From the IMG/VR virus record IMGVR_UViG_3300045998_000148, positions 1-64,000 of that record: DNA of 64,000 nt; one strand, written 5' to 3'. The stretch is from a virus. Shown here piece after piece: positions 56,783-63,229 of the stretch; the stretch's first letter is position 1; each line of letters opens with the position of its first letter. Position numbers and translations under genes: made by a program. The notes beneath the pieces were generated by a model, which made no database searches, was not told where the DNA came from, and saw only the letters and a program-made list of their open reading frames with translations.

Positions 56783-57790
56783 TTAAACTTCTAGCGCAAG
56801 CATTTTTCTCAGCCCTTTCTTTTCAGCCACAAGCGAGTCAAATTCCAAGTCTGCAAACCCTTCGTACCACTCCGACCCCTTTGCCAGGTTTGCGACGATC
56901 GCGCCTCGGAGGGGGTTTGCCGAAACAAAACGCCTGCCTTCACTGTCGCTACCGCCCTTGTTTGGAAACATTTCCCGAATCCGTTCATAATCGGCAATAT
57001 AGTCTTCCGTTGGGTGGGCTGTCTTCGCATCGACGATCGACGCAACGCGGTTGCTCGACCTCGAATAGAACTGATAGCCGTGGACGTACTGCTTATTGCG
57101 ATCGCAGTAATCCGCACAGGCATCAATCAGGTTTGCCGCGACAAATCGATCGGCATCACAAGGCTTATTGAATTTGATCGTCTCCAGGCTGACTATATCT
57201 GGACAAATCAGGCCGTAGCTGTATCTTCGCTTGTGTCCGAACTTTTCCTGAATTTGATAGAAACCCCAGGTTAGAGGAGAAAACAAGCTAGCGATCGCAT
57301 TTTCAAACGACAACCGAATTCCGCTACTGGAATTGGGAATCGCAGTAGACTTCAGCGTAACCCCCTTCGCTCTCGCTTGAAACTTCAACTTTTTAGCAAA
57401 ACCTTGATGGACGAACGACTTCAAAAACAACGTATTGAAAGCGATTTCTCCAAAAGGGGATTCGAGGGCGATCGCTTCAGGGTACAGCATGGGACGCGAG
57501 GCGGGCGATTGCAGTAAAGTCTCCAGCATCCCGATATGCGTTGTCAAATTACAACCAGGCAAAGAGATGATCCCGCCAGAGAGCCGGAAAGTCTGTCGAA
57601 ACAGAAAATCCCAGGCTTCCACAAAATCGCCATCCCAAGAAACCTCAATTTTGGTTCGGTCTTTCTGCCACTGAAAGACAGATTGCTCTTTAGGCAGAGA
57701 TTCGAGGGCAAAGGCCAACCCCGCAATCCCGGCAGAAATATGACAGTCGCCAATAGAATGCGACAAAACATCAAAAGTCAATGAATTCAT
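56783..57790 (-). CDS. cas8: Orphan Cas8 homolog (type I-B MYXAN Cas8a1/Cmx1-like), 335 aa
   Basis: HISAGIAGLAFAL (recalled pattern HRAGIAGLALAL), W...I.VSWDG, FLFRQTFRL.GG.I.LPG, TLLQ, ASLFSPL, LICPDI..L, NPLRGAIVANLAKG.EWYEGF; ATGA coupling. Confidence 0.7.
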   Translation of the reverse strand: MNSLTFDVLSHSIGDCHISAGIAGLAFALESLPKEQSVFQWQKDRTKIEVSWDGDFVEAWDFLFRQTFRLSGGIISLPGCNLTTHIGMLETLLQSPASRPMLYPEAIALESPFGEIAFNTLFLKSFVHQGFAKKLKFQARAKGVTLKSTAIPNSSSGIRLSFENAIASLFSPLTWGFYQIQEKFGHKRRYSYGLICPDIVSLETIKFNKPCDADRFVAANLIDACADYCDRNKQYVHGYQFYSRSSNRVASIVDAKTAHPTEDYIADYERIREMFPNKGGSDSEGRRFVSANPLRGAIVANLAKGSEWYEGFADLEFDSLVAEKKGLRKMLALEV

Positions 57791-58167
57791 GCTGCTACCG
57801 CCTCCACTTCCCGACTCTCCCGCAAAAGCTCGGAAAAATCCGGCATATTCGACAGCCCGCTTTTTTTCCAGGCAAACTGCCGGTTGTTTCCCATCACCCA
57901 ATAGAGGCCATTCGTCAAAAAAACGGCGGCATAGGGATAGCCATCGTCTTCCGGGCATCCAGCCGCCGCCCGTAATTCCTTGCCAAAATCGTAGGGCGAT
58001 TCAAATTCTGTACTGACCACCTCCTCGAAAATGAATTTGTCGAGCTGCGCCGGAAAGTGCGCGTTAATCCACCGATTGTCGGCGATCGCAATCCCCAACT
58101 TTTGCACGAAATCCAAATAAGCCGTGGCGTTTGCCTTAGCATCAGACTTATAAACGTAAACGGTCAT
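57787..58167 (-). CDS. Small hypothetical protein (candidate anti-CRISPR)
   Basis: 126 aa, RBS aaggag, coupled to the cas8-like gene. Confidence 0.65.
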   Translation of the reverse strand: MTVYVYKSDAKANATAYLDFVQKLGIAIADNRWINAHFPAQLDKFIFEEVVSTEFESPYDFGKELRAAAGCPEDDGYPYAAVFLTNGLYWVMGNNRQFAWKKSGLSNMPDFSELLRESREVEAVAA

Positions 58168-58783: not shown

Positions 58784-58850
58784 CGCCTGCCTACAGCTAT
58801 CTTTGTCCTGCTGATTTTGCAGCGCGATCGCCCCCGCTTCCGCCAGGGAT

Positions 58851-59053
58851 TTATTGTCTACTTACCGACTTTATTATCTATTTACCGACTTTATTATCTA
58901 TTTACCGACTTTATTATCTATTATTTGCCGAATTACCTACTTACCGACTTTATTATCTATTTACCGACTTTATTATCTATTTGCCGAAGTATTTATTTAC
59001 TGACTTTATTACCTACTTGCCAACTTTATTATCTATTTACCGACTTTATTATC
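58851..59053. repeat. AT-rich 20-bp tandem array (tttaccgactttattatcta) x~10, some copies degenerate
   Basis: Seen directly; no intervening spacers. Confidence 0.92.
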
Positions 59054-59074
59054 TTGCGTTTTTCAAAGAAAGCG

Positions 59075-60229
59075 CTAGTCGTTGAAAACTTCAGCAGGGT
59101 CGAGATATTCGAGTTCCGCCTGAATCTCCGAAATATCGCGTTCCTCGTGGGCGTGGGGGAATCCATTCTCGTCGAAACGATCGTCGCGTTCGGATTCGAC
59201 GATCGAGGGCAGGATATCGTTAGGGAGAAAAGAAGCGCCCGCCCCAGCGCGAATGCAATCGCGATCGATCTGATCGATCATCAGCTCGAAGACCTTATTC
59301 AACCCGATCGCTTCGAGGAAATTGCGCTTGGCGACCTCATTAGAGTCGTTATTCTGCCGGATCGCGTAGGCCAATTTACTAAGATGTCCCATCATCGCCC
59401 CGGTCTTGCTGAGCGTTTCGTTAGAAATTTCACCCTGACTCAACTGCGTCATCCAGACAGGCTCGATCGTCTCGTCGTACTTAACCTGCGGCAACAGGGT
59501 AGACAGGATGCCCTGAAAGCTCTCGTTCATCTGGCGGAGCCGCTTCCACTGCTCGATAAAAGCCTCGTAGAACTCTTCCAATTCCCGAATATAGGAGCGC
59601 TGCCTGTAGATACTCTCCCAAATCGGAACGTGCGACTCCATCCACTGCTTGAAAAACCGACCTCGATAAGCCCAAAAATAATTTTCGTACCACCGCACCG
59701 TTGTCCTGAGATGGCTCTCGACCTTGGCAGAAATATCGACCTCCAAATCGCAATTATAAAAAGCAATGTCATTTTTTACCTGCTTCAAGAACTCGATCGC
59801 GACGTATTTATAGCGCGGCATATTTTCGGGCAGCCGCTTGTAAAAACTAAAACAGTAAATCTTAAACGCCCGATACGCCGCCGCCGATTCGGTCGGATAG
59901 GGCGGAATGGGGAACTCGGCAAAAACAATTGACTTGTAATCCGAACGTGCAACGGCACGGGCGAGATTCCGATCGCCTGCAATGAAGCGAAGGGGATGCT
60001 CCTCCGGCAGCCCGCCGCCTGCACTATCGAGGTCGCCCGTATCGAGGCGATCCAAGACGCCTTCGTGGTGAAAGCCCAAATCCTCCGGCGATATCTGTAG
60101 GATATCCCGCCGCCGCGCACTGCCCTTTACTGCCCGTTCGCCGCCCTTCGCCTTGCGCCCTGCCGACTTCTCTTGCGAAGCAGGCGCTCCCGACCCCTCG
60201 CCGTATTCTTGCCGCCTAGATCGAGGCAT
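59075..60229 (-). CDS. Hypothetical protein, possible terminase small subunit
   Basis: PTESAAAYRAFKIYC resembles the ESxxAYxAF motif of some small terminases; coiled-coil C-terminal half. Confidence 0.4.
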   Translation of the reverse strand: MPRSRRQEYGEGSGAPASQEKSAGRKAKGGERAVKGSARRRDILQISPEDLGFHHEGVLDRLDTGDLDSAGGGLPEEHPLRFIAGDRNLARAVARSDYKSIVFAEFPIPPYPTESAAAYRAFKIYCFSFYKRLPENMPRYKYVAIEFLKQVKNDIAFYNCDLEVDISAKVESHLRTTVRWYENYFWAYRGRFFKQWMESHVPIWESIYRQRSYIRELEEFYEAFIEQWKRLRQMNESFQGILSTLLPQVKYDETIEPVWMTQLSQGEISNETLSKTGAMMGHLSKLAYAIRQNNDSNEVAKRNFLEAIGLNKVFELMIDQIDRDCIRAGAGASFLPNDILPSIVESERDDRFDENGFPHAHEERDISEIQAELEYLDPAEVFND

Positions 60230-60620
60230 TTTGACGCACCGCCCTTTTAACCTCTTCTTCCGTAAGACAGCTCGCCTTCTCCCCTCGCCACCGAGAGCGA
60301 TAAAGCCCGTCTAGCACCTCGCGGACGGTTTCAGCAACGGCATCCCCCTCCAACTCTCCAGGCGCGACCAGCCGATCCATCTCGGCGGGCGAGGCGATCG
60401 CGATGCGAACCGCGTACTTCGCGCCCTGCGGCATCGCGACCGCAAATTCATTGCGCCCCAAATCCTCGCTATCCAAATTTTCCAGCGCCTCTCCGATGGC
60501 CTGCCTCAATCGCAGCAAGCCGAGGCGATCGCCTACTATATACGCGCAAAACTCCTCGCCTTCCCCAAGGGGCGAGGCATAAACGTATAAAATATCGTCT
60601 CTCAATTTTTTGTATTTCAC
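60216..60620 (-). CDS. Hypothetical protein
   Basis: Probable GTG start at 60620; overlaps the next gene start. Confidence 0.55.
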   Translation of the reverse strand: MKYKKLRDDILYVYASPLGEGEEFCAYIVGDRLGLLRLRQAIGEALENLDSEDLGRNEFAVAMPQGAKYAVRIAIASPAEMDRLVAPGELEGDAVAETVREVLDGLYRSRWRGEKASCLTEEEVKRAVRQNASI

Positions 60621-60672
60621 CGCTATTTCCCTGCCACTCGTTTCGGCAATTATAGCCTCAAAAAAAACCCCC

Positions 60673-60701
60673 TTGACGATTTGGAGCGATCGCCGTACTA
60701 T
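60673..60701 (+). promoter_or_regulatory. Rightward promoter TTGACG-17-TACTAT
   Basis: ttgacg atttggagcgatcgccg tactat. Confidence 0.6.
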
Positions 60702-60854
60702 CTTGATGTCGAAAGACCGCAAAAAAGAATACAAATACATACTATGACCGAGATTGTTGCATCGTCCCTGCCCGTTTCGTCCCCATCAACGCAAAAGCGC
60801 CCAACCGATAGGCAGTTGAGACGCTTTGCAGGAAAAACTCGCGAGAAACAAGTC

Positions 60855-60890
60855 GTTTCCATTCAATTGGTATCCCCCCGAAGGGGAATT
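60855..60890 (-). CRISPR. Solitary CRISPR repeat unit (cyanobacterial type III-B-like); no array
   Basis: Minus strand AATTCCCCTTCGGGGGGATACCAATTGAATGGAAAC: a 5' hairpin plus the AATTGAxTGGAAAC tail of the cyanobacterial III-B repeat family. Confidence 0.6.
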
Positions 60891-61027
60891 TCAAAGTAGC
60901 CAACTATCAAGAGATCGACCGACGAAATCGAGGTATTTGGAGACTTTGACAACTTATGCAGCCCGTGTAGTAGCCGAATAAGCCGGAGCCGATAAGCTTT
61001 AGCCGAGGAGCTTCAGCAAATCTAAAA

Positions 61028-63229
61028 ATGATAGTAGCCGATAAGTTTACACCCTGTCAAGACATTGCCCTGCCGACCGATCGGACAGTGCGACTGCACG
61101 GCGGCATCCTGGCAGCAGGCGGCCCATATCTAAAGCTGTGGTACGCCCTGCGCTGGCTCGACACCAAAGGCAGCGGACGCCTCACCCTCCCCGCCAAGGC
61201 GATCGCCGACCTCTGCGGGCTATCGACCAAGACGCTGTACCGCCACCTACGCGAAGGCCGCGCCGTAGGAGCATTCCTGCGCTATCGCCTCAAGAAAGGC
61301 GTCCTGACCGTAGAAATGGGCAGCAGGGCGCGGCTGACGGTTCACCTCGGCATCGAAGACTGGGGCAACACCGCCAGCTACCCCATCGACGAATTTTTAA
61401 CAAATTTTTACACGATCGCGGCGACTCGCCTCACCGCCGCCGTCAAGCAAAAACAGGCTTACCATGCTGCCTGCCAGCAGCACGTTAAGGGAGTCGTGCC
61501 GCCAGAAAGCGCGATCGCGATGGCAAGAGAGCGGTGCGAACCCGGCGAGGTTTCCAAGTCCCCGACTGTCGAGGTTTCCTCGACAGCTCGTGCGGGACGC
61601 TCGCCAGGGGAAAGCGCACCAAGAGAAAGCCATGCGGAATCGGCGAAAACGGAAGACCTGCTCAGTACGAGCAAATCCCCCAGTAGCGAAGCAAACTCGC
61701 TTATAAAAATACGCTGTGAGAACGGGGATCAGCGGGTCGCGCACCATTTTCTCGACGTCCGCTTGCAAGAGTTCGATGGCGCTGAAGATATCTCAACGCA
61801 TCGAGACGACAGATCACCTCTATACCCGCGAAAGATAATAACGCCAGAACTTGTCAGTTTTCCCGATTGCGCGGAAAATACGGTCGATGACAGGCTCTCA
61901 TCCCAAGCGAATATCCCCCCTATCCATAGAGAGGAGTCTATGGAAAACGCCATTACCACGGCGTCAGTCTGGGGTTTTTTATTTGGAAAAAAGCGATTCT
62001 CAATAAGAGGAAAATCTTGTTTTTTTGCAAATGGAGCGGTACAAAGGCCGCCTGCAATTTTTTTCATTTCCAAAAAGAAAATCTTCGTTACGGGCAGTGC
62101 AAAGATCGCCGCTACTTCGCAAGAAAGTATCGCCGAGGCAATCGGGCGCTCAAAAAAAACGGTAAACAGGCACTTGAAGGCGGTTTTCAAGCGTCAGTAT
62201 TGCCAATCAAACCCGAAAGTATTTTCACAAATTCAGCGCCAAACTCGCACCGGAGAAACCTTCTACGACCCGGAAATCCTGGCTGAAATGACCCCAAACG
62301 GCGAAAAAGTAGCGCACTTGCGCGAAAAGATAGTACGTCGGGCGAGGTTGGAGAAGGGGCGCTGTTTCCAGTTCGAGGGCGAATTGGGCAGGGTTTTGGG
62401 CGATCGCAATGCTTTTATCAATAGACAGAGCATTTACGACCTACCCTATATCGTCCACAGCACGAGGACGGCAAAGCGGTACTTCCGGCGGAAATTCAAT
62501 GTTTCTGCCGTAGAAGGCTACAGTAACGACTTTAGGCTCAATCCCGAGCGCGATCGCCTCTGCCGCAGCAACCCCTTCCGAAGGGGTATCCCCTACCGGG
62601 GGATGTACGAGCATCACTTCGAGGCTTGCCAAACCCTTAAAGGAAGCGATGTTTCGGGAATTGCGACTGCCGAACTCGCTTCCGCCGAACTCGTTTCTGC
62701 CGCCCCGCCCGCAAAACCCGTCTCGCCTGCAAGAGGGGCAAAAGCCGCGATCGACACTCTCATCGCGGACACCGAGAGCGCCTTACAGGGGCTTCCTGAT
62801 TCAAAAGGTACTAACGCCTTGGCCGCAGCGAGGGAGGCGGTAAGGGCGGCATTCTACCGCTCGCAGGATGGCGATCGCGATTCCTTTAAAGCCCTCATCG
62901 AAGGGCGAATCGCCCTGCACTATTTCGACCTGACCGAAGGCGATCGCCAGCCCTTAATCGAAGCCCTGCTCGAAATTATTGCCGATTTCACGGCGAGGAC
63001 GGCGCTATTTCTCGCTCTAGCTCCCGAATGCTATGAACTATCGCCGAGCAGCGCGACCAATTTTGGACTGTGGGAAACTGAAGGTGTAGAGGGATGCGAT
63101 CGCTTACTCAATTCAATCGATTTTATTAATTTTTTTGAATATTTAATTTCGATTGGATTTTGTTTTGGGAAAGAGCTTGAAGTGCTGGCTTCCGCCGCTT
63201 GGAACTGGGGGAGCCGCAGCCTATCGTAA
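61028..63229 (+). CDS. Large HTH-containing protein, putative replication initiator
   Basis: Two HTH-like motifs (AKAIADLCGLSTKTLYRHL; SQESIAEAIGRSKKTVNRHL); the start may be GTG 61088. Confidence 0.55.
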   Translation: MIVADKFTPCQDIALPTDRTVRLHGGILAAGGPYLKLWYALRWLDTKGSGRLTLPAKAIADLCGLSTKTLYRHLREGRAVGAFLRYRLKKGVLTVEMGSRARLTVHLGIEDWGNTASYPIDEFLTNFYTIAATRLTAAVKQKQAYHAACQQHVKGVVPPESAIAMARERCEPGEVSKSPTVEVSSTARAGRSPGESAPRESHAESAKTEDLLSTSKSPSSEANSLIKIRCENGDQRVAHHFLDVRLQEFDGAEDISTHRDDRSPLYPRKIITPELVSFPDCAENTVDDRLSSQANIPPIHREESMENAITTASVWGFLFGKKRFSIRGKSCFFANGAVQRPPAIFFISKKKIFVTGSAKIAATSQESIAEAIGRSKKTVNRHLKAVFKRQYCQSNPKVFSQIQRQTRTGETFYDPEILAEMTPNGEKVAHLREKIVRRARLEKGRCFQFEGELGRVLGDRNAFINRQSIYDLPYIVHSTRTAKRYFRRKFNVSAVEGYSNDFRLNPERDRLCRSNPFRRGIPYRGMYEHHFEACQTLKGSDVSGIATAELASAELVSAAPPAKPVSPARGAKAAIDTLIADTESALQGLPDSKGTNALAAAREAVRAAFYRSQDGDRDSFKALIEGRIALHYFDLTEGDRQPLIEALLEIIADFTARTALFLALAPECYELSPSSATNFGLWETEGVEGCDRLLNSIDFINFFEYLISIGFCFGKELEVLASAAWNWGSRSLS
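61031..61060 (-). promoter_or_regulatory. Leftward promoter TTGACA-18-TACTAT pointing at the solitary repeat
   Basis: -35 at 61060-61055, -10 at 61036-61031. Confidence 0.6.
61524..61626. repeat. Family A element (reverse orientation) with a nested family B hairpin
   Basis: caagagagcggtgcgaacccggcgagg[...gactgtcgaggtttcctcgacagctcgtgcgggacg]ctcgccaggggaaagcgcaccaagaga. Confidence 0.85.

Follow-up and report, generated by a model that had tools for sequence, protein, structure and literature searches.

A single CRISPR repeat unit of 35–36 nt is located on the minus strand of the virus record IMGVR_UViG_3300045998_000148. The stretch of DNA that was analyzed (positions 1 to 64,000, referred to as "the window") represents the first 64 kb of this 99,877-bp IMG/VR record, which is estimated to be ~88% complete and stems from a tailed cyanophage. 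The unit is an intact full-length member of a repeat family of cyanobacterial type III-B CRISPR systems. We give an even chance to the interpretation that it is a phage-borne solitary repeat unit (SRU), which mimics the CRISPR RNA (crRNA) precursor of a host type III-B (Cmr) system that lacks Cas6, and which would act mostly as a decoy. Such a decoy role, resembling that of RNA anti-CRISPRs (Racrs), seems more likely than a role as a guide. The unit and its parts are located as follows.

60855–60890, minus strand: solitary CRISPR repeat unit of 35–36 nt, cyanobacterial type III-B (Synechocystis CRISPR3-like) family (exact single match and covariance model)
60872–60889, minus strand: repeat hairpin with a 7-bp stem and a UUCG tetraloop, starting from nt 2 of the unit (A2–U19; predicted RNA fold)
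60855–60868, minus strand: 14-nt 3′ end AATTGAATGGAAAC, which would be the crRNA 5′ handle after the expected RNase E cut (alignment)

The 36-nt string that had been noted on the minus strand in a preliminary description of this DNA was confirmed and occurs exactly once, at 60855–60890. No further copies with ≤3 mismatches were detected in the window or in the whole record. A covariance model (CM) was built from 13 aligned host repeats, leaving out the phage unit, and was used to search the window with the filters switched off. It recovered the unit over its full length (model positions 1–36; 60855–60889) with a score of 45.8 bits and an E-value of 2.7e-10 for the 128 kb searched. The next best site in the window had an E-value of 0.25, and the other 36 kb of the record gave no second site. 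Local alignments of the unit with its own flanks (155 nt downstream and 170 nt upstream) gave scores below those of shuffled controls. As neither the flank alignment nor the CM yielded a second site, we regard the unit as solitary; no second repeat had been found in the preliminary description either, and the mismatch search agrees with this as well. A "GAAAC" motif ~80 nt downstream was considered as a degenerate repeat and was rejected, because the flank alignment remained below the shuffles and the CM ignored this site.

The CCCC-TTCG-GGGG hairpin of the preliminary description corresponds to the predicted fold, in which the stem A2–U19 carries a UUCG loop and the part 3′ of the repeat hairpin is single-stranded. 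Two of the host repeats (L007 and L028) gave the same fold class. The 14-nt end of the unit is identical in 14/14 positions to all 13 aligned host repeats. The two parts that presumably matter for function, namely the stem and the 3′ end of 16 nt, have remained intact, and the departures from the host repeats are confined to the loop and the linker. The expected position of the RNase E cut in the unit, 13/14 nt from the repeat end, was adopted from Synechocystis CRISPR3 (PMC12464536).

A scan with a pattern consisting of the hairpin and the 14-nt end, which covered one genome per species from 185,579 species, retrieved 12 loci, 11 of them cyanobacterial. Several of these loci were true arrays with a periodicity of 72–83 nt, namely those from Chamaesiphon, Microcoleus, Leptolyngbya, Tildeniella, Pantanalinema, and Dolichospermum. 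The nearest natural repeat, with 32/36 identical positions, belongs to an array in a Chamaesiphon metagenome-assembled genome (MAG). On the contigs with host arrays of this family, cmr2/cas10 was also present, and genes coding for a Cmr6-like RAMP protein and a Csm6-like CARF protein adjoin these arrays. The gene order is apparent on the RefSeq plasmid pNOS7524.01 of Nostoc PCC 7524, where csx18-cas1-cas2 are followed by 63 repeats and then by cas10/cmr2-cmr3-cmr4-cmr6. No cas6 is annotated on this plasmid, and none was found on the host array contigs. The type III-B-like assignment proposed in the preliminary description is thus upheld by the family membership according to the CM and by the host arrays with the same repeat end, which adjoin cmr2, cmr3, cmr4, and cmr6. 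As far as their sequences tell, the host systems of this family match the Cas6-less III-B variant of Synechocystis.

The CRISPR3 repeat of Synechocystis sp. PCC 6803 is GTCTCCACTCGTAGGAGAAATTAATTGATTGGAAAC and ends in AATTGATTGGAAAC (Scholz et al. 2013, PMC3575380); this ending was given correctly in the preliminary description. Maturation of the CRISPR3 transcripts involves RNase E and RNase J; RNase E recognizes the stem-loop, which starts with the second nucleotide of the repeat, and cuts 13/14 nt before the repeat end (PMC12464536). The phage unit and the CRISPR3 repeat are each 36 nt long, form a stem-loop on the 5′ side starting with nt 2, and are single-stranded toward the 3′ end; their 14-nt ends are one base apart (AATTGAATGGAAAC versus AATTGATTGGAAAC). 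Overall, the two sequences are identical at 25/36 positions, whereas the repeats from Chamaesiphon, Nostoc PCC 7524, Leptolyngbya, and Microcoleus are closer to the unit. Unlike Synechocystis CRISPR3, the phage copy stands alone without spacers or cmr genes.

The Rfam family CRISPR-DR58 (RF01371) matched the unit at the same place and in the same orientation with an E-value of 0.0012 and a score of 28.3 bits, the latter being below the gathering score of 38. Both share the hairpin CCCC-UUCG-GGGGGAU and the GGAAAC end, but the handle of the unit represents the AATTGAATGGAAAC branch whereas that of CRISPR-DR58 is TAGAAATTGGAAAC. Arrays of the DR58 type with the identical hairpin CCCCTTCGGGGGGAT comprise 97 copies in one cyanobacterial genome of 3.0 Mb. 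Judged by this comparison, the phage unit combines a DR58-type hairpin with a AATTGAATGGAAAC-type handle. The large arrays in this 3.0-Mb genome, which comprises a single contig (locus L032 in genome G276, contig 1, at ~156.6 kb), consist of 97 repeats of GTTCCCCCTTCGGGGGGATCCCTAGAAATTGGAAAC. Since the leader motif of the GTTCCCCCTTCGGGGGGATCCCTAGAAATTGGAAAC arrays resembles that of the AATTGAATGGAAAC arrays, the two types look like branches of one family.

A conserved leader (…CCTCGCAAA…GGGTTTAnAAT…) is present before the host arrays and is missing before the phage unit, which is therefore not the start of a freshly captured array. Members of the same III-B family were also observed outside of complete host loci. 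A viral contig (IMGVR_UViG_3300021392_000005, 11100–11460; locus L027), which codes for a tail tube protein and TnpB, ends in a mini-array of 3.5 repeats that has a host-type leader and a terminator after the truncated last repeat. Orphan single units away from cas genes were located in the chromosome of Microcoleus sp. GLPB (L002, 7457–7492) and in a Kamptonema MAG (L011, 740–775, minus strand); one of them is near trpC and an aminotransferase gene, and the other comes directly after feoB and has its own terminator and a decayed second unit behind it. No spacers against the phage were found in the twelve 8-kb host loci or in the array of the viral contig.

The unit resides in a non-coding divergent stretch of ~400 nt, which is flanked by two orphan genes and contains several signals that may govern its transcription.

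61031–61060, minus strand: sigma-70-like promoter TTGACA-18-TACTAT with 10/12 matches, ~135 nt upstream of the unit (consensus scan)
60791–60829, minus strand: terminator-like hairpin with a CTTTTGCGTT tail, starting 26 nt after the unit (scan with 60814–60798 and T-tract; fold)
60830–60854, minus strand: spacer-like sequence of ~25 nt from the repeat to the terminator hairpin, with a weak hairpin at 60854–60836 and a T5 run (RNA folds)
60673–60701, plus strand: facing promoter-like site TTGACG-17-TACTAT (consensus scan only)
60891–60949, minus strand: imperfect long hairpin directly 5′ of the unit and within the leader (inverted repeat I1 with 27-nt arms, 70% complementary; fold)
60969–61048, no strand assigned: short direct repeats, AGCCGATAAGCTT three times and AGTAGCC.. 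twice, between the promoter-like site and the unit

The leftward TTGACA-18-TACTAT promoter, which the preliminary description placed ~135 nt from the unit, was recovered as a consensus match, as was the rightward promoter-like site at 60673–60701 that faces it. The consensus scan retrieved these two sites, compared with 0.5 ± 0.6 sites in shuffled sequences. The promoter-like site upstream and the terminator-like site downstream of the unit are both located on the crRNA-sense strand. The region 60790–60854 was predicted to fold with z = −4.08, and for the 101-nt segment that spans the unit and everything up to the terminator hairpin's end z was −4.95, with 0/200 shuffles being as stable. The two promoter-like sites face each other across ~330 nt, and simultaneous activity of both would give rise to a sense and an antisense RNA that overlap completely in the region of the unit. 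A transcript starting from 60673–60701 would be antisense to the unit and could form a long 5′ untranslated region (UTR) of the gene coding for a protein of 733 aa. The direct repeats at 60969–61048 are possibly operator sites of the divergent control region.

According to the interpretation that we favor, leftward transcription from the promoter-like site of the unit would yield a structured small RNA of ~100–230 nt. The host RNase E would recognize the 5′ stem-loop and cut 13–14 nt before the repeat end, as in Synechocystis CRISPR3. The resulting RNA, consisting of an authentic AAUUGAAUGGAAAC handle and phage sequence, would then be loaded by the host Cmr complex and compete with the host crRNAs, leading to non-targeting complexes. 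Because the repeat family needs no Cas6, the phage RNA would be cut by the host RNase E before it competes for Cmr loading, and the predicted effect would thus be that of a Racr-like decoy at the loading step rather than through the capture of Cas6. Less likely, the ~28–34 nt after the handle might serve as a real guide.

Camara-Wilpert et al. 2023 (PMC10651486) attribute the first description of SRUs to Faure et al. 2019. The latter work describes validated Racrs for types I-C, I-E, I-F, and V-A (RacrIF1, RacrIC1, RacrIE1/2, RacrVA1-3), of which RacrIF1 acts by binding Cas6f and Cas7f, and it also describes that a non-targeting crRNA lowers interference (PMC10651486). Racr candidates were selected there if they resembled a repeat in sequence and fold and had a promoter no more than 250 bp upstream. 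Being solitary and preceded by a promoter-like consensus match at less than 250 nt, the unit corresponds to such a candidate (PMC10651486), as the preliminary description had proposed. Like the Racrs, the unit is a lone viral sequence that resembles real repeats, also in its hairpin, and is not attached to cas genes. It differs from the validated Racrs in belonging to the repeat family of a Cas6-less type III-B system, whose repeats are expected to be cut by the housekeeping enzyme RNase E, as known from Synechocystis CRISPR3. With RNase E cutting the repeats and no Cas6 involved, a decoy could act only at the step of Cmr loading. Type III SRUs, none of which was tested in that study, appear in its virus tables, and the sequence of the phage unit was not found in the parts of these tables that were searched (PMC10651486). 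Our finding adds to the cataloged viral SRUs, including those of type III; it differs from the tested Racrs in that it would be aimed at a type III-B system presumably matured by RNase E.

Virus-borne mini-CRISPR arrays, which exploit Cas proteins of the host, are known as well (PMC6858448, PMC11656645). Examples are the mini-CRISPR arrays of the Saccharolobus viruses SPV1 and SPV2 (Medvedeva et al. 2019, PMC6858448) and the cas-less array of cyanophage N-1, as described in PMC6293099. The phage unit resembles these arrays in being host-type repeat material on a virus without cas genes, which presumably uses the Cas proteins of the host. However, in the SPV1/SPV2 and N-1 arrays at least two repeats flank spacers that match related viruses, whereas the phage unit consists of one repeat and has no detectable target.

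Whether the sequence behind the unit could be a spacer was assessed by its structure and by target searches. Compared with 189 natural family spacers, the first 30–45 nt after the unit have an ordinary structure, which falls between the 35th and 60th percentile. The view that the downstream sequence is too structured for a spacer was consequently rejected; the structure belongs to the terminator hairpin at 60791–60829. When the handle is taken together with the following 34 nt, this RNA exceeds 94% of the natural crRNAs in structure, because the GGAAA of the handle can pair with UUUCC (60835–60831). For the target searches, the 35–65 nt downstream of the unit were used as queries. No target was detected in the phage itself, and the 401 sampled cyanobacterial genomes gave matches at chance level only (best match 23 nt at 96%). 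The 50,697 phage records contained only unrelated matches of ≤25 nt with E ≥ 0.3, and exact 20/21-mers were absent from IMG/VR. A target of the ~40 nt after the unit, for which a search in host and phage had been proposed in the preliminary description, was thus not found in any of these datasets. The overall interpretation given there is accordingly supported in part: the repeat family, the solitary state, the promoter-like site, and a partial Cas8 likeness of a neighboring gene are in agreement with it, and no target was found in the datasets searched.

Several points weigh against the unit being a crRNA mimic. We infer the transcription, processing, and Cmr binding of the unit. The promoter and the terminator are consensus matches, one terminator-like site is expected from shuffles, and the promoter-like site (61060–61031 on the minus strand) overlaps the first codons of the neighboring divergent open reading frame (ORF) of 733 aa, which starts at 61028. 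An identical repeat was not found in the 185,579 species-representative genomes, from which only family members were retrieved, nor in metagenome contigs or IMG/VR. Furthermore, if synthesis of a decoy begins only once the cell is infected, the decoy cannot displace complexes loaded beforehand. We know of no Racr that has been validated for any type III system. Finally, the orphan family units in host chromosomes away from cas genes indicate that solitary copies can arise as remnants. The unit could indeed be an inert relic, that is, a repeat which the phage acquired when it recombined with a CRISPR array of a host (for example, at a phage protospacer and the host spacer matching it) and which it has not yet lost. 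This explanation, which we consider rather unlikely, is consistent with the orphan units beside trpC and feoB and with the unit being a single copy without known relatives, for which no conservation is demonstrable. A relic is, however, at odds with the completeness of the unit, its perfect 16-nt 3′ end and intact stem, with the absence of both a host-type leader and a second repeat, and with its gene-like placement in the crRNA-sense orientation between promoter-like and terminator-like sites of a control region. A chance resemblance, for which only the short length of the unit speaks, has a virtually negligible probability and is ruled out by the CM match (E = 2.7e-10 over 128 kb) and by the independent match of Rfam CRISPR-DR58 in the same orientation; moreover, 100 shuffles contained 0 matches.

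Two further alternatives assign a function to the unit. It would be unlikely, in our opinion, that the unit belongs to a mini-array that lacks the second repeat and provides a guide with one spacer, in which the 28–34 nt after the handle aim the host Cmr complex at a competing phage, a plasmid, or a host transcript. The 3′ ends of type III crRNAs are made by trimming (PMC12464536), so that a second repeat is not strictly needed for a guide, and the first 30–45 nt after the unit are no more structured than natural spacers. A precedent is provided by the known virus-borne mini-arrays that use host Cas proteins (PMC6858448, PMC11656645) and, within the same family, by the 3.5-repeat mini-array of the viral contig mentioned above. 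These points are countered by the target searches, which remained negative in the phage, the cyanobacterial genomes, the phage records, and IMG/VR, and by the terminator hairpin that begins just 26 nt after the repeat. In addition, no lysogeny or partition genes were found in the record, and the collateral RNases of a triggered type III system would harm a lytic phage too. Quite unlikely is also that the unit is a cis element of phage transcripts. It would then either let RNase E enter within the ~400-nt leader that precedes gp174, gp384, and the subsequent genes of the leftward operon or, read from the other strand, form an anti-repeat in the long 5′ UTR of the 733-aa gene. The interval from the unit to gp174 contains no scan-grade promoter, which would allow read-through from 61060; the facing promoter-like site at 60673–60701 would transcribe the antisense strand, and a CRISPR3-type repeat is a proven substrate of RNase E (PMC12464536). 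Yet the terminator-like hairpin lies between the unit and gp174, and an RNase E site requires no perfect 14-nt Cmr handle.

A scenario that involves both facing promoters is very improbable. If both fired, RNase E would turn the minus-strand RNA into a crRNA-like guide. A perfect target for this guide would be provided by the plus-strand RNA, namely the long 5′ UTR of the replication-region gene coding for the 733-aa protein, which also contains the complement of the handle (anti-tag). In type III systems, tag:anti-tag pairing permits RNA cleavage by the Cmr backbone and blocks the activation of Cas10. The host Cmr complex could then act as a silent RNA-guided RNase that times the expression of this phage gene, and Cmr complexes would simultaneously be occupied by a harmless guide.

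To our knowledge, RNA anti-CRISPRs have been proven only in cases where a Cas protein (Cas6 or Cas12a) recognizes the repeat. The candidate described here would be directed at a type III-B system that lacks Cas6 and is presumably matured by the essential host RNase E. If the crRNA mimic is real, repeat mimicry would subvert type III immunity at the loading step and would need no capture of Cas6. It would also offer a simple RNA tool to switch off CRISPR3-type systems in model cyanobacteria such as Synechocystis. If the unit is instead a relic, it would still record a past recombination of the phage with a host type III array.

The large terminase subunit of the phage shares 44% identity with its counterpart from Planktothrix phage PaV-LD and 40% with the one from Aphanizomenon phage CL131. 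Other genes in the record code for an endolysin, a RusA resolvase, and a D12 methylase. The DNA of the phage has a GC content of 53% and contains 164 copies of the HIP1 octamer GCGATCGC of cyanobacteria. Genes for integrase, resolvase, ParA, and ParB were searched for in the ~88% complete record, and none was found. This result fits a lytic phage, for which counter-defense would be more useful than superinfection exclusion, and the lack of lysogeny and partition genes in the record argues against a resident prophage that defends its host. Racrs are frequently co-located with acr genes; no known acr family was detected near the unit, and no DUF1874 ring nuclease was found in the phage record. 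Relatives that were sought for a synteny comparison via the large terminase were ≤36% identical and located on short contigs only. The following features neighbor the control region with the unit.

60216–60740, minus strand: orphan ORF gp174 (listed with 174 aa), which follows downstream of the unit in the same orientation
61028–63229, plus strand: divergent orphan protein of 733 aa with two helix-turn-helix motifs
58833–59075, no strand assigned: ~11 iterons of 20 nt in tandem (TTACCGACTTTATTATCTAT-like), which separate the Cas8-like operon from the unit
56783–57958, minus strand: orphan Cas8a1/Cmx1-like ORF, 2.9 kb downstream of the unit (TIGR03485, E = 1e-12, residues 75–139, below the curated cut-off)

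The real start codon of gp174 is probably the GTG at 60620, and matches of gp174 in the structural Atlas were confined to residues 40–153. For the neighboring orphan proteins gp174 and gp384, searches of Pfam, PHROGs, NCBIfam, and PADLOC yielded no family and the Atlas gave no useful match, and a search for homologues of the 733-aa protein returned only the protein itself. The iterons sit at the 3′ end of an orphan ORF (59075–60229), and the cluster at 58833–59075 is, based on its sequence, a probable replication origin.

The ORF at 56783–57958 had been called "cas8-like" in the preliminary description. This likeness holds in so far as the ORF matches the Cas8a1/Cmx1 model and has a homologue that aligns to an annotated cas8a1; the match is restricted to the N-terminal part of the model and remains below the cut-off. 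PADLOC called the ORF Cas8b/Cas8a. Two homologues, P0003 and P0004, are 62% and 45% identical to the ORF, respectively, and P0003 is 24% identical (E = 9e-7) to the annotated cas8a1 product on a plasmid of Nostoc sp. MS1. Searches for P0003 and P0004 in IMG/VR, the phage records, and the 401 sampled genomes did not retrieve them, and the plasmid search returned only this 24%-identical cas8a1. The Cas8a1/Cmx1 resemblance is thus real but partial. Cas8 is a type I protein, and its proximity therefore does not indicate that it is functionally linked to a repeat of type III. Together, the Cas8a1-like orphan 2.9 kb away and the repeat unit suggest that parts of host CRISPR systems are collected in this lineage of cyanophages.

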